In this document: piece by piece, positions 1,701-39,116 of the stretch
Position numbering within the stretch: the stretch's first letter is position 1
Layout: every line of letters starts with the position of its first letter
The notes under the pieces: generated by a model
What the model saw: the letters and a program-made list of their open reading frames with translations, nothing else
The model's database searches: none
Told to the model about the DNA's origin: nothing
Position numbers and translations under genes: made by a program
Source of the DNA: Candidatus Nomurabacteria bacterium
GTDB lineage: Bacteria > Patescibacteriota > Minisyncoccia > Phycocordibacterales > SBAW01
Reading direction: 5' to 3'
DNA: 44,520 nt
Assembly (NCBI GenBank): GCA_020854065.1
Contig: JADZGF010000010.1
Span: 1 to 44,520, forward strand

Positions 1701-1970
1701 ATGACAGATCTTGCTCCCGACTTCGATCGTTCGTGCCGCGCATGCGGTATCGAGCTCAAAGAAATGCCCATCATACCCTTCACGGAAGTGACTTTTTGTA
1801 TGCCCATACGCATCTTGCAGTGTTCAGGATGCAAAGGGCGACTCTTTGTCTTTGATGCTCCCGTGAAGCCGTTGGTGTTACGTAGTGACGAGATTCGTCA
1901 CCAGTATCCGTTTGCCGATTTCCTCGCTAGACGGATGGAGGCACATAGTCGCAAGCATAGCAGTAACTGA
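1701..1970 (+). CDS. Small zinc-ribbon-like protein, function unknown
   Basis: 89-aa ORF with a GGAG-type SD at 1688-1691. Two CxxC pairs (CRAC and CSGC) lie about 26 residues apart. Followed by terminator 1981-2007. Confidence 0.45.
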   Translation: MTDLAPDFDRSCRACGIELKEMPIIPFTEVTFCMPIRILQCSGCKGRLFVFDAPVKPLVLRSDEIRHQYPFADFLARRMEAHSRKHSSN

Positions 1971-1980
1971 TTATCTTAGA

Positions 1981-2007
1981 CCCGCGCCATGGCGCGGGTT
2001 TCGTTTT
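1981..2007 (+). terminator. Rho-independent terminator
   Basis: CCCGCGCCatGGCGCGGG palindromic GC hairpin followed by tttcgtttt, 11 nt after the stop at 1970. Confidence 0.65.
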
Positions 2008-2022
2008 GCTATACTTAAGCAC

Positions 2023-3762
2023 ATGTACGAGAACCCCGAGCAGATAACATACTTTGCAACCACCAACAGTCGGGGCAAAGAAACCCCTTTCGGTATCAAG
2101 CGCAAAGATCGCGCCCGCCACATGTACATCATCGGCAAGACCGGTATGGGGAAGTCGACCTTGCTCGAGAACATGGCTATCCAAGATATCCGCAATGGAG
2201 AAGGTATGGCCTTTATCGATCCGCACGGCTCTACCGCTGATCGCATCCTTGAATATGTCCCCAAACACCGCCTGAACGACGTGGTGTACTTTGCACCTTT
2301 CGATATGGAACATCCAGTTGCGTTCAATGTCATGGAAGACGTTGGATACGACAAACGTCACTTAGTGGTCTCAGGTCTTCTCTCCGCTTTCCGCAAGATT
2401 TGGGTTGATGCATGGAGTGCCCGCATGGAGTACATCCTCTCTAACACGTTGCTTGCATTGCTTGAGTATCCAGGCGCCACACTTTTGGATGTTAATCGCA
2501 TGTTGATTAATAAAAACTTCCGCAAGAAGGTTGTTGATAATGTGCAGGATCCGTTGGTGAAGAGTTTTTGGGTTGATGAGTTTGCGAACTACACTGATCG
2601 CTACACGCAAGATGCGACTCCCGCAATTCAGAACAAAGTGGGGCAGTTTACCTCAAACCCTCTCATCCGCAACATTGTGGGGCAGGCAAAGAGCTCGTTT
2701 GATATCCGCGAGATTATGGACGAGCGTAAGATCTTGATCATGAACCTCTCCAAGGGTCGCGTGGGTGAGGTGAATGCAACTCTTTTGGGTTCAATGCTCG
2801 TTACCAAAATCTATTTGGCTGCCATGTCTCGTGCCGATGTATCGGCTGATACTTTGCGCAATCTTCCCAACTTCTATTTTTACGTAGACGAGTTCCAGAA
2901 CTTTGCCAACGAATCTTTTAGCGACATTCTTTCTGAGGCGCGTAAGTACAAACTCAATCTTACGATTGCGCACCAGTACGTTGAGCAAATGGAAGAAGAA
3001 GTACGGGATGCAGTCTTTGGCAACGTGGGTACAACCGTTGCGTTTCGTGTCGGGCCGTTTGATGCAGAGACCTTGGAGAAAATATTTGAGCCGCAGTTTA
3101 ACGCCACCGACCTGGTCAATCTTGGCTTTGCTCAAATATATCTCACGCTCATGATAGACGGCGTTGGGTCTCCACCGTTTAGTGCCACCACGCTCCCTCC
3201 TTGGGATCCTCCTCCGGAGCGCTATACCGAAGATGTTATTGCTGCGTCACGTGCGCAGTTTGGTAAGCCACGTGCAGAAGTACAAACCCTTATCGATGAA
3301 TGGGTTCGTTCTGATCCGGTTGTGCAAGAGGCGCCAAAACCAAAGTATGGTGCGCGCAGTAATGGAAATAATGCACCACGTAGCAACCCTGAACCACGTC
3401 CGACACCGCCTCCTGTACCGGTGGTGCAGGAAAAACCATACGTTCATGTGGAAGCTCCGCGTGCACCCGCTCCAAAAGATCCGCATGAGTTAGGGGAGCG
3501 TTTGGCACACAAGCATGAGATGGCACAAAGCAAAGCGATGCGACCAGAGCCTCCAGCGCCGCGTGCTCCGCAACAGCCTCCGAAGCCAAAACTTGAAGGC
3601 GCAAACTCACTTAAGGATGCACTTGCGGCAATACAGCGGAACCGTCCGACACTGCACTCTTCAAAAGAATCTCCCGATCAGCATCCAAAAAGATCTGAGC
3701 GACCCCCCTTGTCTAAAGAGGAGATGGCGGCTATGCTAGCCGTCGATGAAACCGACCGTTAA
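2023..3762 (+). CDS. TraD/TraG/VirD4-family (type IV coupling-protein-like) P-loop ATPase, soluble, with a disordered Pro/Lys-rich tail
   Basis: The ORF track starts at 1885, but its first 46 codons span the terminator hairpin and overlap the upstream ORF. The first ATG after the terminator is 2023 (MYENPEQITYF). Walker A is GKTGMGKST and the Walker B-like segment is FYFYVDEFQNF. RKYKLNLTIAHQY...VGTTVAFRVG matches the TraG/TraD C-terminal module. No N-terminal TM helices. The last ~160 aa are low complexity (PKPK, PPAPRAPQQPPKPK). Confidence 0.75.
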   Translation: MYENPEQITYFATTNSRGKETPFGIKRKDRARHMYIIGKTGMGKSTLLENMAIQDIRNGEGMAFIDPHGSTADRILEYVPKHRLNDVVYFAPFDMEHPVAFNVMEDVGYDKRHLVVSGLLSAFRKIWVDAWSARMEYILSNTLLALLEYPGATLLDVNRMLINKNFRKKVVDNVQDPLVKSFWVDEFANYTDRYTQDATPAIQNKVGQFTSNPLIRNIVGQAKSSFDIREIMDERKILIMNLSKGRVGEVNATLLGSMLVTKIYLAAMSRADVSADTLRNLPNFYFYVDEFQNFANESFSDILSEARKYKLNLTIAHQYVEQMEEEVRDAVFGNVGTTVAFRVGPFDAETLEKIFEPQFNATDLVNLGFAQIYLTLMIDGVGSPPFSATTLPPWDPPPERYTEDVIAASRAQFGKPRAEVQTLIDEWVRSDPVVQEAPKPKYGARSNGNNAPRSNPEPRPTPPPVPVVQEKPYVHVEAPRAPAPKDPHELGERLAHKHEMAQSKAMRPEPPAPRAPQQPPKPKLEGANSLKDALAAIQRNRPTLHSSKESPDQHPKRSERPPLSKEEMAAMLAVDETDR

Positions 3763-4855
3763 AGCGCTAGCGACTCTCGCTCTCCTCGCTTTTGCCTTGC
3801 CTGCCCTTGCCGCGGTCAATATAAATACTGCCGGTCTGGACGAACTTGATGCCCTCCCAGGTATTGGGTCTGTAAAAGCTCAGGCCATTATCGACTACCG
3901 TACTGCAAACGGTCCGTTTGAAACAAAAGAGGAGTTACTCCAGGTCGATGGTATTGGGCAAGTAACATACGATGGACTTAAAGACCTCATCACAATTGAT
4001 GGGGAAAATAGTGCACACACCACTACCGCTGAAGACGATACCGACACTGCCGAGGAAACAGAAACTCCGTCAACGAGCTCCGGCTCATCTTCCAACAAGG
4101 GCGCGCCACTTAAGGGAGTAAAGATAAATTACGATACTGTTGTTGCTCAAGCGCCTACCACGTTCACTTCGGTAGTAACTGATACAAAAGGAACCGAACT
4201 TACCTACGGTGTACGTTACTGGTGGAATTTTGGCGACGGTACCACGGGGACCGACGCATTTCCTGTACATACGTACCAACATCCTGGTACGTACACGGTA
4301 ACTTTGCGCGTCACGCACAAAGATCTCGACGTATCCACTGAAGCAACAGTCGATGTGCTTACATCAGGTATTACACTGAGCACTCCGGGTGACGGTTCTG
4401 TTGCACTTAAAAATACAACGAATGCAGCAATAGATATTGGAGGTTGGATGCTGGTCGACCAAGATATCATCTTTACCATTCCTTCTGGTACGCGCATTGC
4501 AAAAGGTGCTGAAGTCCGTTTTGCCCGCTCCGTTACCGGACTTTTTGGCACGACATTTACGAGACTCTTGTTCCCGAACGGTATTCTTGCTGCTTCGGTA
4601 GTGGAGCCACAAAAGGATGTTCGAGTAGTGTCAGGAGCAGCGCCAAGTCATGTGCATCAAGAAATGGTGCCGCAAGAATCGGTACCTTCTGTAGATACTT
4701 CTCAATCAGCCGCTGTGGCACATACGCCACTTTCCCCATCTGTACTGCCATGGGCTGGACTTGTTGGCGTGGTGGCACTTGGATCTTTGGGTACCTACTT
4801 TTACACCCGCCGCCCGGTAACCAAGGCAAACCCTGAAGAGTTTGATATTGTGTAA
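3746..4855 (+). CDS. ComEA-like helix-hairpin-helix DNA-binding surface protein fused to PKD and lamin-tail (LTD)-like domains, C-terminally anchored
   Basis: Signal peptide MKPTVKALATLALLAFALPALA. INTAGLDELDALPGIGSVKAQAIIDYRTANGPFETKEELLQVDGIG is the ComEA HhH motif. An acidic Thr/Ser linker follows. WNFGDGTTG...HTYQHPGTYTVTLRVT is a PKD signature. VALKNTTNAAIDIGGWMLVD is LTD-like. The C-terminus has LPWAG plus a hydrophobic helix plus RRP. Confidence 0.75.
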   Translation: MKPTVKALATLALLAFALPALAAVNINTAGLDELDALPGIGSVKAQAIIDYRTANGPFETKEELLQVDGIGQVTYDGLKDLITIDGENSAHTTTAEDDTDTAEETETPSTSSGSSSNKGAPLKGVKINYDTVVAQAPTTFTSVVTDTKGTELTYGVRYWWNFGDGTTGTDAFPVHTYQHPGTYTVTLRVTHKDLDVSTEATVDVLTSGITLSTPGDGSVALKNTTNAAIDIGGWMLVDQDIIFTIPSGTRIAKGAEVRFARSVTGLFGTTFTRLLFPNGILAASVVEPQKDVRVVSGAAPSHVHQEMVPQESVPSVDTSQSAAVAHTPLSPSVLPWAGLVGVVALGSLGTYFYTRRPVTKANPEEFDIV

Positions 4856-4860
4856 CTAAC

Positions 4861-5709
4861 ATGGCTAAAACAGTAGTGGTAACCGGTGGAGCCGGATTTG
4901 TTGGTTCGCGTCTCTGTGAGCGCTTGGTGCGTGAAGGGTATCATGTTATCTCACTCGACAATTATTTTACGGGCACTGAGGAGAAACATATCGATGGGGT
5001 TGAATATCGAGTGGGACATACCAAAGATATTGCAAAGCTTGTCCCTGAAACACCCGACCTTATTTACCATTTGGGTGAGTATGCACGTGTTGAACAAAGC
5101 CTAAGCGAACCCCAAGTGGTGTGGGACCTTAATATAGCAGGAACTCAGGGTGTGCTTGAGTTTTGGCGTGCAAAAAAATGTAAACTCATTTATGCAGGTT
5201 CGAGCACCAAATTTGGCGATGGAGGTCTTTCTCGTGTAGCGACTCCGTATGCATGGACAAAGGCGGCCAATACCGAACTCGTTAAAAACTACGCAACATG
5301 GTATGGACTCCCTTTTGCTATTACCTACTTTTACAACGTATACGGCCCCGGTGAACGTGCCGGCAAGTATGGAACTGTCATTGAAATCTTCCGACAAAAG
5401 AAAGCTGCAGGAGAGCCGATTACGATAACCGCACCGGGTACTCAGAAGCGTAACTTTACGCACGTTGATGATATTGTTGATGGTCTAATCTTAGTTGGCG
5501 AGAAAGGTGAGGGTGAAGAATTTGGATTGGGTTCTGAGGAACCTTACTCTATACGCGAAGTAGCTGAGATGTTCGGCGGTCCTATCGAGATGCGCCCCGA
5601 AGCTGCAGGAAATCGTATGGACTCTATGCTTGATATCACGAAGTCTCGTGCAATTGGATGGTCTGCAAAAAAGAAACTGCCAGAATACATCAAGAGCATA
5701 CTCGCATGA
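4861..5709 (+). CDS. NAD-dependent nucleotide-sugar epimerase/dehydratase (extended SDR)
   Basis: VVVTGGAGFVGSRLCERL Rossmann motif, a YxxxK catalytic pair (YAWTK), and the GTQKRNFTHVDD motif typical of UDP-sugar epimerase/decarboxylase SDRs. Confidence 0.8.
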   Translation: MAKTVVVTGGAGFVGSRLCERLVREGYHVISLDNYFTGTEEKHIDGVEYRVGHTKDIAKLVPETPDLIYHLGEYARVEQSLSEPQVVWDLNIAGTQGVLEFWRAKKCKLIYAGSSTKFGDGGLSRVATPYAWTKAANTELVKNYATWYGLPFAITYFYNVYGPGERAGKYGTVIEIFRQKKAAGEPITITAPGTQKRNFTHVDDIVDGLILVGEKGEGEEFGLGSEEPYSIREVAEMFGGPIEMRPEAAGNRMDSMLDITKSRAIGWSAKKKLPEYIKSILA

Positions 5710-6806: not shown

Positions 6807-7796
6807 ATGCGCATCTTACTAGCTGCAGGACTCTACCCACCTGAAAGTGGTGGGCCTGCGACCTATACCAAACTTATTGAAGAGCGTCTTCCGGCGCACG
6901 GCTTTGATGTTACCGTGGTGCCATACCGGACCGTGCGACACTTGCCGGCGGGACTTCGGCATCTTGCCTACTTTGGCAAACTTTTACTTACGCCCACGGA
7001 CCTTATCTACGCGCAAGACACAGTCTCCGTTGGATTGCCGGCAGCGTGTGCGGCACTCTTTTTGCGTGTACCTTTAGTGGTGCGCGTGCCGGGCGACTAT
7101 GCATGGGAACAGGCACGGCAGCGCTTTGGGGTGACTGATGAGCTTGATGAGTTCCAGCAGAAATCGTATGGGCTGCGTGTGTGGTTCCTGCGCATGCTGC
7201 AACGCTTTGTGATTAATCGTGCGCGTCTCGTTATTACTCCGAGCGAGTATATGCGTACGTTAGTGGGGAAATGGACTGACCCAAAAAAGGTACATCGTGT
7301 GTACACTTCTTTACCACTACCTCCGCGCTACGAGTTGCCTGCTGAGCGACCTTCAGGTTTCTTAGTACTTACCGTCGCGCGTCCGGTTCCATGGAAAGGA
7401 CTTGAAGCGCTCGAACGTACTGTGGGGCGTAATAAGAACTGGGTGTATAAGCATATAAACGATCTTCCGCACGAACAGGCGATGGGTTGGATTAAATCGG
7501 CCGACGTGTTTGTGCTTAACTCAACCTATGAAGGACTCTCGCACGTATTAGTTGAGGCGCTGAGTTTGGGTACGCCAGTGATCGCAACAAATGTCGGCGG
7601 CAATCCAGAAGTTGTTGGCGACGCTGGGGTCCTTATCCCTGCGAAAGATGATGAAGCGCTTTATGCTGCATTAAGGGAGGTTGAGGATAATAAGGTGGCA
7701 ACGGCCGAGCGGGTAGCCTGTGGGTTGGTAAAGGTTAAACAGTTTGATATAGAGGTTGCGGTGGGACAACTCGCTGCTCTCCTAAAATCGATATGA
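6807..7796 (+). CDS. Glycosyltransferase family 4 (GT-B)
   Basis: MRILLAAGLYPPESGGPATY N-terminus and STYEGLSHVLVEALSLGTPVIATNVGG E-x7-E motif. Confidence 0.8.
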   Translation: MRILLAAGLYPPESGGPATYTKLIEERLPAHGFDVTVVPYRTVRHLPAGLRHLAYFGKLLLTPTDLIYAQDTVSVGLPAACAALFLRVPLVVRVPGDYAWEQARQRFGVTDELDEFQQKSYGLRVWFLRMLQRFVINRARLVITPSEYMRTLVGKWTDPKKVHRVYTSLPLPPRYELPAERPSGFLVLTVARPVPWKGLEALERTVGRNKNWVYKHINDLPHEQAMGWIKSADVFVLNSTYEGLSHVLVEALSLGTPVIATNVGGNPEVVGDAGVLIPAKDDEALYAALREVEDNKVATAERVACGLVKVKQFDIEVAVGQLAALLKSI

Positions 7797-8683
7797 AAGT
7801 CCTTGCAATAAGCGGCGATAAGCGTTTCAAGCCTGGTAACCCCCGCTACGACCTCCAAGCGTCTGCAGTAGACCTTGCAGTGGTGTACTGGGGTCGGGGA
7901 GCGTTATTTCCCCGTATCCCTGAGGGGCATTTTGATGTGGTGAGTGCACAAGATCCATTTTTCCGCGGTCTATTCGCGTGGTATGTAGCTAAAAGATTAA
8001 AGGCCCGCTTTAATGTTCAGGTGCATACTGATCTCTCAGCACAACCATTTTTTAAATACTTCATTGCAAAAAAAGTCTTGCGTCACGCCGACACTGTCCG
8101 TGTCGTTTCAAAAAAAGGGAAAAGCCAGATTGAACATATACGGGTGCGTGGGTGTATTTCGATACTTCCGGTGTTCACTGACCTCAGCCGTTTTTCCTCC
8201 ATTGTGCGCAAACCAGACCCGCATACTATTCTTTGGGTTGGTCGCTTTGAAGTAGAGAAGAATCCTTTCTATGCGCTTGATGTGCTTAAGTATGTACGAA
8301 AGCAGGGGGTTGATGCACGTCTTGTCATGTTGGGTGATGGCTCGCTGCGCGGAATGCTTGAGGGCAAGGCGTCCGCTCTGTCGCTTCCGGTTGAGTTTCC
8401 TGGTTGGCATGATCCCGCTCCCTATCTTGCAACAGCTACACTCGTGCTCTCGACCTCTGTCCATGAAAGTTGGGGTGCCAGTATTATCGAAGCACTCGCA
8501 GCAGGCGTGCCTGTCGTTGCTCCTGATGTGGGTATTGCGCGTGAGGCAGGAGCTATTGTAGTCTCACACGAGCATATGCCGGGTATTGTTACTGAAGCGC
8601 TCCAGAGCGGTGCAGAGACACACCTAGCGATCACTATGCCGTCTAAAGATGAATGGGTAAAAGAGTGGGTTACAACATTATGA
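7793..8683 (+). CDS. Glycosyltransferase family 4-like (GT-B)
   Basis: ATGA overlap with the upstream gene. Motifs WVGRFEVEKNP and HESWGASIIEALAAGVPVVAPDVG. Confidence 0.7.
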   Translation: MKVLAISGDKRFKPGNPRYDLQASAVDLAVVYWGRGALFPRIPEGHFDVVSAQDPFFRGLFAWYVAKRLKARFNVQVHTDLSAQPFFKYFIAKKVLRHADTVRVVSKKGKSQIEHIRVRGCISILPVFTDLSRFSSIVRKPDPHTILWVGRFEVEKNPFYALDVLKYVRKQGVDARLVMLGDGSLRGMLEGKASALSLPVEFPGWHDPAPYLATATLVLSTSVHESWGASIIEALAAGVPVVAPDVGIAREAGAIVVSHEHMPGIVTEALQSGAETHLAITMPSKDEWVKEWVTTL

Positions 8684-9561
8684 CGATTGGATTTATTGGC
8701 CAGGGTTTTATAGGTAAAAGTTACGCTGACGACATGGAGCGTCGTGGCTATCGTGTTGTGCGCTATGCGCTTGAGCCGGCGTATGTTGGCAACAAAGATA
8801 AGATCAAATCATGCGACATGGTCTTTATTGCGGTGCCCACGCCCACCACGCCTAAAGGTTTTGATTATTCGATTGTTGAGTCGGCACTGCATTTAGTGGG
8901 AGTAGGTAAGATCGCTATTATTAAGTCGACTATTTTACCGGGGACAACTGCACAGCTACAGAAAAAATTCCCCAAGCTTGTCATTATGCACTCACCGGAG
9001 TTTTTGGTGCTTAAACAAGCGGCCGAGGATGCGGCGCGTCCACTGCGCAACATTATTGGTGTTGCCAAAAACACCCCGACCTATCGATCTCATGCGCGCC
9101 GTGTGATGCGTGTGTTGCCCAAAGCGCCGTATGAGCTTGTATGTTCGGCAAAAGATGCTGAGTTGGTTAAGTACGGTGGCAACTTTTTCCTATATCTTAA
9201 GGTGCTCTATGCCAACCTTATGTACGAACTCAGTGAGCGTGCCGGTGCCAACTATGAGGTGGTAAAAGAAGCTATTGCCGCTGACCCGCGCATTGGCCCC
9301 TCACATCTCCAAGTGCTCCACGACAGTGGACACAAAGGTGCAAAACGGGGGCGTGGTGCCGGTGGAGTATGCTTTATTAAAGACGTGGCAGCATTTGCCG
9401 ACTTTTACAGCAAAGCCACAAAGAATAAGGCTGGGATGAATCTTATTCAGGCTGCAATTGATAAAAACATCGAACTCTTAATTGAGTCTGGAAAAGACTT
9501 AGACTTACTCGTCGGCGTACACGGTCCCCGTGTGTTGCGCAGAAAGGTTCGTCAAAAATAA
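8680..9561 (+). CDS. UDP-glucose/GDP-mannose dehydrogenase-family protein, short form (N-terminal and central domains only)
   Basis: Start moved to ATG 8680 (MTIGFIGQGFIGKSY, a GxGxxG motif), which forms an ATGA overlap. SPEFLVLKQAAEDAARPLRNIIG resembles the NPEFLREG motif. GGVCFIKD resembles the catalytic-Cys GGxCxxKD motif. At about 293 aa the C-terminal UDP-binding domain appears absent. Confidence 0.6.
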   Translation: MTIGFIGQGFIGKSYADDMERRGYRVVRYALEPAYVGNKDKIKSCDMVFIAVPTPTTPKGFDYSIVESALHLVGVGKIAIIKSTILPGTTAQLQKKFPKLVIMHSPEFLVLKQAAEDAARPLRNIIGVAKNTPTYRSHARRVMRVLPKAPYELVCSAKDAELVKYGGNFFLYLKVLYANLMYELSERAGANYEVVKEAIAADPRIGPSHLQVLHDSGHKGAKRGRGAGGVCFIKDVAAFADFYSKATKNKAGMNLIQAAIDKNIELLIESGKDLDLLVGVHGPRVLRRKVRQK

Positions 9562-36040: not shown

Positions 36041-36583
36041 TTAGAGGGCAGGGGTAACACTCTCAACATAGGTTGCTCCACATTCTTCCATGATTTGCGA
36101 AGCGCTATCAGAATCCTCTGTATGTGCGCTCACCAATATGTCTCCCGCTTGTACCCGATCTTCGTAGCGTAGTGCAGTCTCTTCATCCATACCCCAACTA
36201 GTGAGTGCGCCAATAAGGCCACCTGCTGCAGCACCCGTTACTGCTCCTGCGGCTCCAGTGCCAAGTGCACCTGCGCCGAGTCCTAATGCAGACACGAGCG
36301 GCCCGGCTGCCACAATGGGTCCAAGTACAGGCAGCATACCTGCAGCGACTGCAAGTCCTGCGACTCCACCCAGTGCGCCGCCTGTTATTGCACCCCGTGT
36401 AGCGCCTTCAGCTGGTCTGCTCGAGCTCACGCGGCTTGTGTCTACTTCCTGCACGCGACCGTTTGCAGAGCGGTATATATAAGAAATTTCGTCATCTCCA
36501 ATCATCGCTTCTCGATGGAGTCGATTAATTGCTTTTTCTGCGTCCTCACGGGCGCTAAATGCGCCGATTACTAGTTCTTTCAT
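36041..36583 (-). CDS. Glycine-zipper membrane/stress protein (YflT/general-stress-protein-17M-like ends, DUF1269-like core)
   Basis: The N-terminus is VIGAFSAREDAEKAINRL. The central Gly/Ala-rich helices include GGALGGVAGLAVAAG...GAGALGTGAAGAVTGAAAGGLIGAL. The C-terminus is EETALRYEDRVQAGDILVSAHTE. Confidence 0.6.
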   Translation of the reverse strand: MKELVIGAFSAREDAEKAINRLHREAMIGDDEISYIYRSANGRVQEVDTSRVSSSRPAEGATRGAITGGALGGVAGLAVAAGMLPVLGPIVAAGPLVSALGLGAGALGTGAAGAVTGAAAGGLIGALTSWGMDEETALRYEDRVQAGDILVSAHTEDSDSASQIMEECGATYVESVTPAL

Positions 36584-37428: not shown

Positions 37429-37434
37429 TAGGTA

Positions 37435-37473
37435 TATAGTGCCGAAAGATCACGTTCATCTATAAAAGGAGGG
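37435..37473 (+). promoter_or_regulatory. Promoter -10 (TATAGT 37435-37440) plus a strong Shine-Dalgarno (AAGGAGGG 37466-37473) for the Ubl cassette
   Basis: Read directly from the sequence. The SD ends 7 nt before ATG 37481 and is the strongest SD in the window. Confidence 0.45.
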
Positions 37474-37480
37474 AAGACAC

Positions 37481-38182
37481 ATGTCCTGGCTAAAACTGCC
37501 GGAATGGCGATTCCTTGGAAGACTAAAGGGGGCGACGGTTCCCGCGCCACTCCCTGTTGCGGCAGATCGCGATCGATGGATACGACTGCGCGAGATGTTC
37601 ACCGAAGAAAAAGGAATGGAGGAGTTTTTCGGGGGAGAATTCGACACACTGCGCAACCACGAACATATCAGGCGTATCCGCGTGAGCGAGGACTATACCG
37701 TGAGTGTCAAGACAAAAAGATTGTTTGCAACGGTCCTCGACAGGACCTGCGGCAAACATAAGAGGCTCTATATAGGAGCCTTTAGGATTACGCTTTCGAT
37801 CGAACCAGGGACTCCAGTGATGGGTCTTGCAAATCGGCCTCGTGCGAAACTTCACACCATAGAGTGCTTGAGCTCAGGCAGACATGATGGCAAGAAAACC
37901 ACTATGTATGTTGTTGGTGGTAACGAGACAGGAGGCTTCTGTTTTGGGGCTCAAGAGGGGAATTCTTTTGTCACCCAACTGGTGACGTCGGGCGAGTTCT
38001 TCACACTTATCTTGTTCGTCATGGCGAGACTTGCTCACGTCAATAAAGAGAATGAGGCAAGTGCGCTGCGCGAGTATCGGCAAGTGCTTCCGGATGGAAG
38101 TGTTGCACAGCGCAGAAAGCCGCCACCCAAGGAAAGGTTGGTCCTCTTGCAAGGTGAATGGCCTATAGGAGAAGAACCATGA
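37481..38182 (+). CDS. Uncharacterised 233-aa protein, first gene of the E1/Ubl cassette (weak UBC/E2-like pattern, unproven)
   Basis: Strong SD and an ATGA coupling to the E1-like gene. No TM helix or signal peptide. Cys residues at positions 90, 129 and 154. The segment KRLYIGAFRITLSIEPG...LHTIECL...HDG...GGFCFG loosely recalls E2 core motifs. Confidence 0.6.
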   Translation: MSWLKLPEWRFLGRLKGATVPAPLPVAADRDRWIRLREMFTEEKGMEEFFGGEFDTLRNHEHIRRIRVSEDYTVSVKTKRLFATVLDRTCGKHKRLYIGAFRITLSIEPGTPVMGLANRPRAKLHTIECLSSGRHDGKKTTMYVVGGNETGGFCFGAQEGNSFVTQLVTSGEFFTLILFVMARLAHVNKENEASALREYRQVLPDGSVAQRRKPPPKERLVLLQGEWPIGEEP

Positions 38183-38853
38183 CTCTCTATCCCGACAGAT
38201 TAGGGTATGGCGTGGTGTGTGTTGGTGCAGGAGGTATTGGCAGCCATGTGCTACCCATGCTTGCTCGTGCCGGCGTCACCCGCTTTGTCCTCTACGACGA
38301 TGACACGGTCGCTGATGTAAATCTCCAGATGCAAAACTTCAATGCTGACGAAATTGGCCAGCATAAAGTGTATGTGATGGAGAAACGCTTGCGGGCTATC
38401 AACCCCGCCGTGTGCATATCGGCACGACCGGTGCGATTTGGTGACTCGGCGGCACTTGACGGTATTGTCGTAAGCGCCGTAGACTCAATGCAGAGCCGCA
38501 CAGAGATCTTTGACGCAGTTCGTCAGAGGCGAAACACCATCGCGCTCTTTATCGATGGGAGGCTGACACGATCAGGAGATTTCATCGATCTGTATTTCAT
38601 CGACCCGAAAAATGGTTACGATATGCAGAGCTATGAATCTCTCTTGTTTGGAGATCCCGGGGGCCCTCAGCCCCCGCGGCCCGACAGTATGACGGCACAC
38701 GTGCCGCTCGTGCTCGCAGGACTCATTGGCGAAGTGCTTGCCCAATGGGGAGCCGGCAGGCGTCACCCCTGGAAGGTGACATATGATGGGTTGGCGCACC
38801 ATACCGAAAGGTATTATGCGCAAGCCTTTTCACAACTGGAGGCTGCTTCATGA
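38179..38853 (+). CDS. Minimal ThiF/MoeB/E1-like adenylyltransferase (adenylation domain only)
   Basis: Start moved to ATG 38179 (ATGA overlap; AGGAG at 38167-38171). Motifs VCVGAGGIGSHVLPMLARAGV, FVLYDDDTVADVNLQMQNF and VVSAVDSMQSR. No CxxC zinc motifs, and no Cys after residue 85. Confidence 0.8.
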   Translation: MTLYPDRLGYGVVCVGAGGIGSHVLPMLARAGVTRFVLYDDDTVADVNLQMQNFNADEIGQHKVYVMEKRLRAINPAVCISARPVRFGDSAALDGIVVSAVDSMQSRTEIFDAVRQRRNTIALFIDGRLTRSGDFIDLYFIDPKNGYDMQSYESLLFGDPGGPQPPRPDSMTAHVPLVLAGLIGEVLAQWGAGRRHPWKVTYDGLAHHTERYYAQAFSQLEAAS

Positions 38854-39056
38854 TCCGTTTTCTGAAAGCTGGCGACACACCCAAGAATGTTCTCTGCAGT
38901 TTCGACAAGACAACGGCAGGTGATGTCCTTGGACAACTCGGCGAAAATGTCGGTGGTGGCAGTGTTCTCACGATCAACGGTCGCGGCGCACAGCCCTCAG
39001 ACCCGGTGAAGCCTGGCGACACCGTGTCGGTTCAACCTCAGGCCCGCAACGGCTAA
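38850..39056 (+). CDS. Ubiquitin-like / ThiS-MoaD-like beta-grasp protein ending in ...ARNG
   Basis: 68 aa, with an ATGA overlap to the E1-like gene. TAGDVLGQLGEN...VLTINGRGAQPSDPVKPGDTVSVQPQARNG-stop matches the ThiS/MoaD pattern (..vNg....pl.dGD.v.i.p...G). Confidence 0.6.
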   Translation: MIRFLKAGDTPKNVLCSFDKTTAGDVLGQLGENVGGGSVLTINGRGAQPSDPVKPGDTVSVQPQARNG

Positions 39057-39080
39057 TAATCAACGTTCGGCAACTTATAC

Positions 39081-39116
39081 GGCGTTGTGCATCATGCACG
39101 GCGCCCTTTTCTTTTT
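39081..39116 (+). terminator. Rho-independent terminator closing the Ubl cassette
   Basis: GGCGTTGTGC-atcat-GCACGGCGCC (10-bp stem with two G-U pairs) followed by cttttcttttt. Confidence 0.6.

Follow-up and report, generated by a model that had tools for sequence, protein, structure and literature searches.

On the 44,520-nucleotide stretch of contig JADZGF010000010.1 of a Candidatus Nomurabacteria bacterium that we analyzed (the window), three short genes on the forward strand form a compact unit, hereafter the triad, which joins a protein of no recognizable family to a minimal E1 adenylase of the ThiF/MoeB type and a predicted ubiquitin-like protein (Ubl). The first open reading frame (ORF; 37481-38182) encodes a 233-amino-acid (aa) product that we call protein A, the second (38179-38853) encodes the 224-aa E1, and the third (38850-39056) encodes the 68-aa Ubl, which terminates in QARNG immediately before its stop codon. 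As a preliminary description of this DNA had reported, the three frames are chained by two ATGA stop/start overlaps (38179-38182 and 38850-38853) that can be read directly in the sequence, and the first of these couples translation of protein A to that of the E1. An alternative in-frame ATG at 38158 would yield a 231-aa E1; relatives of the protein, however, point to the start at 38179.

The unit is bounded by recognizable expression signals. A Shine-Dalgarno element, AAGGAGG (37466-37472), lies 8 nucleotides 5' of the protein A initiation codon at 37481. This site had been described as the strongest of its kind in the window; it is indeed strong and well placed, but the forward strand has five such sites in all, and it is therefore not uniquely so (AAGGAGG-type sites number 11 in the window, against 3.5 expected by chance). 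A TATAGT hexamer, a putative -10 box, is likewise present ahead of the unit (37435-37440); because a scan for sigma-70 promoters detected no full -35/-10 pair at this position, its assignment as a promoter is unverified. At the distal end, a terminator scan and RNA folding both identify an intrinsic terminator-like hairpin with a T-tract (39081-39116), in agreement with the closing hairpin noted in the preliminary description. Its 11-bp stem contains seven GC pairs and carries a 3-nucleotide loop (39081-39105), followed by CTTTTCTTTT, and the hairpin folds with an energy of -23.1 kcal/mol (z = -2.6). The GC content of the triad, at 0.50-0.55 compared with 0.49-0.54 in the flanks, is not anomalous.

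The middle gene product belongs to the ThiF family of E1 enzymes, as its Rossmann signature had suggested. The protein scores 78 bits with the Pfam ThiF model (PF00899; residues 12-118), well above the cutoff of 28.1, matches many NCBIfam models for ThiF, MoeB, UbaA and PRTRC proteins, and can be aligned with Escherichia coli ThiF. Only the N-terminal Rossmann half is covered by these models; the PADLOC E1-E2 (Cap2) models match residues 12-120 only, and the NCBIfam 6A-MBL cap2_3 model falls in the same half. By hidden Markov model (HMM) comparison the enzyme is closest to ThiF and MoeB, and the best matches of its profile to solved structures include UBA5 (E = 1.5e-10). Profile searches returned a tight group of triad-type E1s (26 clusters, E < 1e-51), followed by a gap, beyond which lies a large sister group of ~220-aa E1s that are about 30% identical. 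A Rosetta-stone search of 120 E1 relatives found no fusion of the E1 to either protein A or the Ubl.

When 26 triad-type and 90 sister E1s are aligned with E. coli ThiF and compared column by column, the adenylation core proves to be retained. The GAGGIGS segment, D40/D42, K63 and D102 are 92-100% conserved in both groups and align with their ThiF counterparts, K63 and D102 being the equivalents of MoeB K86 and D130; together with the GxGxxG motif, R107, R128 and Y152 are retained as well. The two zinc-binding CxxC pairs that ThiF and MoeB carry in their C-terminal half are absent from the alignments of both groups. The two groups diverge at the column of ThiF C184, the crossover-loop cysteine of the ThiF-ThiS acyl-disulfide, which is equivalent to the thioester cysteine of E1 enzymes. 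Here, 89 of 90 sister E1s carry a Cys within a PCTAR motif, whereas 25 of 26 triad-type E1s carry an Arg (R167 in the window) within the motif PRxD..AH.P. No other positionally conserved Cys exists among the 26 triad-type sequences. A second substitution is found at NLQMQN (residues 48-53; window 38320-38337), which aligns with NLQRQ of ThiF and in which Met replaces the canonical Arg (ThiF R70, MoeB R73). Triad-type E1s have M, Q, A or V in this column, and sister E1s mostly have N, such that the ATP-contacting Arg of the NLxRQ motif is replaced throughout the minimal E1 lineage of the Candidate Phyla Radiation (CPR).

Profile relationships place the third gene product in the ThiS/MoaD/SAMP class of beta-grasp Ubls, consistent with its earlier assignment to the ThiS/MoaD/ubiquitin fold with an exposed C-terminal Gly. 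On its own, the 68-aa sequence gives only weak Ub-Mut7C and ThiS matches that fall below gathering cutoffs (ThiS, 18.2 bits versus 22.5). A profile built from a 10-sequence alignment, by comparison, matches small archaeal modifier protein 2 (SAMP2) of Pyrococcus furiosus end to end (5lda_B; E = 1.2e-7, query 5-71 on chain residues 3-69) and PF1061 over its full length (E = 1.3e-7), with the last Gly paired to the terminal Gly of both proteins; MoaD (E = 6e-3), Haloferax volcanii SAMP2 and TtuB are matched more weakly. SAMP2, the closest relative of solved structure, is a conjugated modifier. The terminal Gly is invariant across the nine Ubls of this alignment that come from triads or from sister loci with a bare Gly. 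The penultimate residue is N or L, so that triad Ubls end in NG or LG with a single Gly; a GG pair is present only in two Ubls from sister loci, one ending in RGG (L022) and the other in GGA (L026, which lies outside the 10-sequence alignment).

Protein A has no match in Pfam, NCBIfam, PADLOC or PHROG, and the judgment that it fits no nameable family, which extends to the sequences of the PDB (see below), has thus held up. A word-indexed search of 5.8 billion proteins recovered just four close homologs, and an exhaustive HMMER search of 1.84 billion representatives found relatives in 36 clusters; judged by its sequence, protein A founds a new and rare family. Among 34 aligned members, G133, C154 and E172 are invariant and D136 and N188 nearly so, and the family is marked by the motifs SGRHDG, GGFCFG and GE-F...LDSLxHIN. 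Every one of the 34 aligned members has the Cys of GGFCFG (Cys154), as do the further members that we read. A confident AlphaFold2 model computed from the same alignment (mean predicted local distance difference test score 86.7, predicted TM-score 0.78) comprises two N-terminal helices (26-41 and 47-58), four long strands in antiparallel arrangement (63-68, 74-87, 92-108 and 121-132), the loop bearing C154, and three further helices (160-170, 173-184 and 189-198). The predicted order of these elements resembles that of the ubiquitin-conjugating (UBC) or E2 fold, the Cys falling in the loop that follows strand 4, and adds one extra helix at the N-terminus. The same kind of additional N-terminal helix exists in UFC1. 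We considered rhodanese and papain-like folds for protein A and rejected both, given the order of its motifs and the topology of the model. At the N-terminus, family members have tails that vary in length and are often extremely rich in Arg, Glu and Gln, with a coiled-coil-like character; such charged tails are seen in the window (37481-37570), in P0027, P0029, P0032 and P0036, and in protein A of locus L023, and they may serve in binding targets or nucleic acids.

The three genes are conserved as a unit, as a neighborhood check of relatives demonstrates. Every locus encoding a family member has an E1 directly downstream, and a Ubl as well wherever the sequence extends far enough. The full order of protein A, E1 and Ubl is found in the window and at L001, L008, L010/11/19, L016, L018, L023 and L024, the A-E1 pair is found in shorter contigs (L002-7, L012, L013 and L020), and the order persists among relatives whose protein A is only 24-37% identical. 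The commonest setting is SecA-(NUDIX/M24)-CcdA-[triad]-DUF360-Obg-GatB, which holds down to ~27% protein A identity, indicating vertical inheritance within the lineage. L024 presents a different context, MFS-[triad]-DNA_alkylation-PurD, which brings the number of unrelated chromosomal settings to at least two and indicates that the three genes also travel together. In the public annotation of L024, a gene of the DNA_alkylation family (7590-8762) has been extended upstream across the Ubl ORF in another frame; this miscalled overlapping gene masks the Ubl (7603-7803, 66 aa, ending in IRNG) and accounts for its absence from the annotation.

The absence of the usual partner genes, observed initially in the window, extends to the relatives. 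ThiG, ThiH, MoaE and CysM do not adjoin the triad in the window or at L001, L008, L010, L011, L016, L019, L023 or L024, and no JAB, CD-NTase or ParB gene is adjacent at any triad locus examined. Scanning GTDB genomes with a five-sequence alignment of protein A returned nothing, and scanning them with an E1 alignment returned a single metagenome-assembled genome (MAG), 'Parcubacteria group bacterium Gr01-1014_56' (L016), whose E1 homolog is publicly annotated as a ThiS adenylyltransferase; metagenome contigs scanned with the E1 alignment gave three loci only. The Parcubacteria origin of this relative fits the earlier guess that the triad resides in a reduced genome. We read the triad as a chromosomal, vertically inherited module of a Parcubacteria (Patescibacteria) clade.

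Among the sister E1s, a JAB gene stands next to the E1 at three of the four loci examined (L021, L022 and L026), and not at L024. At L021 (4291-5949; Parcubacteria RIFCSPLOWO2_01_FULL_48_18), a SAMP-like trio of JAB, Cys-bearing E1 and a Ubl ending in VANG adjoins the gene for alanyl-tRNA synthetase, with no A-type protein; its JAB protein shows an HSHx7SxxD motif and a Prok-JAB match (7e-5). L022 (3501-6003) and L026 (2509-4992), both on CPR contigs, instead encode four proteins: one of ~300 aa, a JAB, a Cys-bearing E1 of ~220 aa, and a Ubl. The L022 Ubl ends in IRGG and the L026 Ubl (4747-4992) in VSGGA, one residue past GG, which implies processing by the JAB; in triads, which have no JAB, the Ubl always stops at Gly. 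This four-gene set is of the classical conjugation type. The ~300-aa proteins have no Pfam or PHROG match, but their C-terminal ~40 residues (G-[FV]-C-L-G plus a helix) can be aligned to the Cys core of family A (P = 1.3e-4 and probability 54% by hhalign; P = 2.4e-3 when a single sequence is compared), indicating that an A-type Cys module is a recurrent partner of this E1/Ubl lineage. An HPH-x7-C spacing in the ~300-aa protein of L022, which mimics HPN-x7-C, was set aside because it is not conserved in the L026 homolog. The surroundings of L022, with many small ORFs and a MazG gene, have a phage-like look. Set beside these cassettes, the triad appears to be derived: it no longer has a JAB, its Ubl is produced in mature form, and the Cys of its E1 has been replaced.

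How might the three proteins work together? The reading that we favor, at roughly even confidence, is that protein A acts as an E2-like carrier that supplies the thioester cysteine in trans. The strict linkage of the three genes, the invariant Cys154, the conjugation-type gene content of two sister cassettes, and a Ubl that resembles SAMP2 and ends in xG all speak for it. The 68-aa SAMP2/ThiS-like Ubl would be made with its C-terminal Gly already exposed, as can be read directly from the gene, and since it has no propeptide, a dedicated JAB peptidase would be unnecessary for its maturation. The ThiF-type E1 would bind the Ubl and adenylate Gly68, as its conserved Rossmann, Asp, Lys and Asp residues suggest. 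With an Arg in place of the crossover-loop Cys and no other conserved Cys, the E1 presumably cannot carry the tag as its own thioester. Cys154 of protein A would attack the acyl-adenylate instead, combining the roles of the E1 cysteine and the E2 carrier; that the Cys has been lost specifically in A-linked E1s suggests that its function has moved to protein A. More speculatively, protein A~Ubl might hand the tag to lysines of one or more targets, or to protein A itself, with the charged N-terminal tails as candidates for target recognition. This scheme agrees with the initial reading of the locus as a stripped-down, three-component Ubl system, which our analysis supports.

The E2-like character of protein A is coherent but unproven, and is thus best described as probable. 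When the family was compared by hhalign with six eukaryotic E2 sequences, 80 columns aligned colinearly and Cys154 paired with the catalytic Cys85, at P = 0.16; as a control, the bona fide Prok-E2_D family aligned with the same E2s over only 22 columns (P = 0.027). A comparison with PRTRC-B (Prok-E2_D) pairs GGFCFG with GxICIG at a suggestive P = 0.03-0.04, and one with PRTRC-A, a JAB protein, gave nothing. An H-x-N motif follows the Cys in both families, as H186-x-N188 in protein A, 32 residues on, and as HPN 188-190 after C159 in Prok-E2_D. Foldseek searches with the model yielded weak matches to the ubiquitin E2 variant (UEV) domain of TSG101 (five, E = 0.18-0.97) and to Cap2 (two, E = 0.35 and 0.72).

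A number of results weigh against this assignment. None of the links between protein A and an E2 family, in sequence or in structure, is statistically significant. The 34 aligned members match no Pfam family at E <= 1, including UQ_con and all Prok-E2 families, and a profile search of family A against all PDB sequences returned no matches. Foldseek found nothing below E = 1e-3 in the PDB or BFVD (best E = 0.11), and the UEV and Cap2 matches have TM-scores of only 0.12-0.24; we dropped Foldseek as proof of the fold, because oligonucleotide-binding-fold single-stranded DNA-binding proteins score as well as UEV and Cap2. The HPN motif that precedes the Cys of E2 enzymes by about 8-10 residues is also absent from protein A, its positional equivalent being the RHD of SGRHDG, 18 residues before the Cys, with a His that is not invariant. 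Elsewhere in the proposed pathway, adenylation has to be assumed for an E1 that lacks the canonical ATP-contacting Arg, Ubls of the SAMP2 type serve as sulfur carriers too, and no target, deconjugating enzyme or E3 is known for the triad. Protein A could also be a new catalytic module, not descended from any known E2 family, that took over from the lost E1 Cys, so that adenylation and thioester formation are divided between two polypeptides of a split E1 within a housekeeping tagging pathway specific to this Parcubacteria clade. We regard this possibility as improbable; were it correct, the targets might be core machinery encoded nearby (secretion, ribosome assembly), selected by the charged tails.

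The main rival explanation for the triad holds that it is a sulfur-carrier system modeled on TtuB/TtuC, Urm1/Uba4 or SAMP2/UbaA, in which Cys154, bearing a persulfide obtained from a cysteine desulfurase, turns the Ubl adenylate into a thiocarboxylate that donates sulfur, for example for tRNA thiolation. The resemblance of the Ubl profile to SAMP2, MoaD and TtuB, the proximity of the E1 to ThiF and MoeB, and the ThiS adenylyltransferase annotation of the L016 homolog are all in keeping with such a role, as is the vertical inheritance of the cassette among housekeeping genes. Loss of the E1 Cys would also be no obstacle: in the MoeB mechanism an external persulfide resolves the adenylate independently of any E1 Cys, and chemistry of this type thus requires none. 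At no locus examined, however, does the triad adjoin ThiG, ThiH, MoaE, CysM, a TtuA/Ncs6 PP-loop protein, a rhodanese or a cysteine desulfurase, and its Ubl tails, which end in NG or LG, lack the GG that thiocarboxylate carriers typically have. Protein A is predicted to form a long antiparallel meander without a CX5R loop, not the parallel sheet of a rhodanese, and the sister cassettes combine a JAB with an A-like Cys-motif protein. To our knowledge, moreover, CPR genomes generally lack the thiamin and molybdenum cofactor (Moco) pathways. On balance, we consider a sulfur-carrier function unlikely.

Two further explanations seem less probable still. Protein A might be non-catalytic, acting as a dedicated substrate, adaptor or regulator of tagging by the E1 alone (of a sampylation or Cap2-less type), with the Ubl passing straight from the adenylate onto a Lys or Cys of protein A, or with protein A scaffolding the E1. 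Archaeal sampylation and TtuB conjugation both proceed without an E2, the strict linkage of A, E1 and Ubl would fit a dedicated substrate equally well, and the homology of protein A to E2 enzymes falls short of significance. Yet an invariant Cys in a conserved Gly-rich loop, accompanied by the invariant E172 and the near-invariant D136 and N188, looks more like an active site than a site of modification; the E1 Cys has been lost specifically in A-linked E1s, and the Cys core reappears in the ~300-aa proteins encoded at L022 and L026. We hold a non-catalytic protein A to be quite doubtful. The triad could also be an anti-phage or conflict system that tags phage proteins in the manner of CBASS (cyclic-oligonucleotide-based antiphage signaling system) Cap2, Bil or Bub. 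The matches of the E1 Rossmann half to the PADLOC E1-E2 (Cap2) and NCBIfam 6A-MBL cap2_3 models, along with the phage-like region around the sister cassette L022, speak for this idea, but those matches are restricted to the generic adenylation core, and neither protein A nor the Ubl has a PADLOC or PHROGs match. The triad keeps a fixed position in the core genome down to ~27% protein A identity, unlike a defense island, its GC content is unexceptional, and it has no effector, CD-NTase, DUF6527 protease or CapH/CapP/CapW regulator. Viral contigs yielded nothing either, whether the query was the E1 or the ~300-aa protein encoded at L022. A role in defense is accordingly the least probable of these explanations, and in our view a very unlikely one.

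Among known systems, archaeal sampylation (SAMP1-3/UbaA/HvJAMM1) and the Thermus TtuB/TtuC pair share with the triad a small modifier of the ThiS/MoaD type and a single minimal ThiF/MoeB-type E1, and the sister locus L021 has exactly the JAB-E1-Ubl composition, with the E1 Cys kept. UbaA and TtuC, however, retain the crossover-loop Cys and need no E2, whereas the triad has an Arg there and an obligatorily linked Cys protein; its Ubl ends in xG rather than GG, and it includes no JAMM gene. The UFM1/UBA5/UFC1 system, like other non-canonical E1s of the ATG7 type, offers a parallel in that three components are built around a minimal homodimeric E1, and its modifier ends in xG as the triad Ubl does; UBA5 nevertheless has a catalytic Cys250 where the triad E1 has Arg, and no relationship in sequence between protein A and UFC1 came to light, no search aimed at it having been made. 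ThiF-ThiS and MoeB-MoaD provide the best HMM matches to the N-terminal half of the E1 and have carriers of similar size, and MoeB resolves its adenylate without an E1 Cys. The triad differs from these pairs in lacking CxxC pairs, the Cys184 equivalent, the canonical Arg, a GG tail and biosynthetic partner genes, and in adding an obligatory Cys protein.

The E2/E1/Ub/JAB cassettes described by Iyer, Burroughs and Aravind, including the PRTRC type, follow the same logic of an E2-like protein, an E1 and a small Ubl. Prok-E2_D (PRTRC-B) shows G-x-[IF]-C-[IF]-G followed by H-x-N ~30 residues on, as protein A does, although hhalign does not find this likeness significant. The triad has no Prok-E2, Prok_Ub or Prok-JAB Pfam matches and no ParB, JAB or PRTRC E/F genes, its E1 scores 46.5 bits against the PRTRC ThiF equivalog TIGR03736 and so falls short of the cutoff of 144.75, and it is chromosomal rather than carried by a plasmid or an integrative and conjugative element; a reference PRTRC locus (L017) looks different. 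Type II CBASS is set apart by its CD-NTase, its E2-E1 fusion Cap2 and its JAB protein Cap3, none of which the triad has, the PADLOC E1-E2 models covering the E1 only. Bub pathways provide a precedent for a working bacterial E1 that has no catalytic Cys and is paired with a strongly diverged E2 of the UBC fold (Ye et al., 2024; PMC11601596). Bub systems of the 6E/DUF6527 class use Ser/Tyr oxyester intermediates and feature Ubl-E2, JAB-E1 and E2-E1 fusions, a DUF6527 serine protease and nearby defense regulators (PMC11601596). In common with Bub, the triad has a minimal, homodimer-type, Cys-less E1, a putative, diverged UBC-like E2 and no E3; it differs in its three separate proteins, the Cys of its putative E2, its lack of a protease gene and its core-genome context, and Pfam, NCBIfam and PADLOC searches gave no sequence match between triad proteins and Bub components.

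The triad falls within the known class of prokaryotic E1/Ubl modules, and what is new is the partner family, the pairing of a Cys-less E1 with a Cys protein in trans, and the housekeeping-like chromosomal setting. Among the papers that we searched, none links CPR or Patescibacteria to a Ubl/ThiF system. If the E2-like carrier reading is correct, no self-contained set of E1, E2-like protein and Ubl smaller than the triad, with its ~525 residues and no protease, E3 or fusion, would be known so far. The place of the triad is the core genome of ultra-reduced CPR bacteria, not a defense island or mobile element. The pair of lineages, one with a sister E1 that bears Cys and the other with a triad E1 that bears Arg together with protein A, would constitute a natural experiment on the movement of the thioester step from E1 to partner, and this contrast complements the recent Bub oxyester findings. 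With protein A, the triad defines a new family, and its three proteins make a tractable system for study in vitro.

Family annotation of the flanking genes agrees with the initial placement of the unit between ccdA and housekeeping genes. Upstream lie SecA, a minus-strand ORF of 180 aa without annotation and a DsbD_TM/CcdA protein; downstream are a Phage_holin_4_2/DUF360 protein, Obg and GatB. The 180-aa ORF (36041-36583), located between secA and ccdA, is rich in Gly and Ala and has no Pfam match; it is absent from syntenic relatives, in which NUDIX or M24 genes occupy this position. The longest ORF for obg begins at a TTG codon (39413) that overlaps the end of the DUF360 gene, and the Obg domain begins from an ATG (39488) that is likelier to be the initiation codon. 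Near the left end of the window, a gene for a TrwB/TraG-like coupling-protein ATPase (1885-3762) precedes one for a ComEA-like protein (3746-4855) that combines HHH, PKD and lamin-tail domains, a gene pair (1885-4855) that possibly belongs to a DNA-uptake or type IV-like apparatus. Much of the remaining window is taken up by a ~28-kb cell-envelope glycosylation cluster (4861-32984), which encodes many glycosyltransferases of the GT1, GT2 and GT4 families, epimerases and PMT_2 mannosyltransferase-like proteins, as well as YdjC-GtrA, UbiA, asparagine synthase and a Wzy_C-TPR protein.

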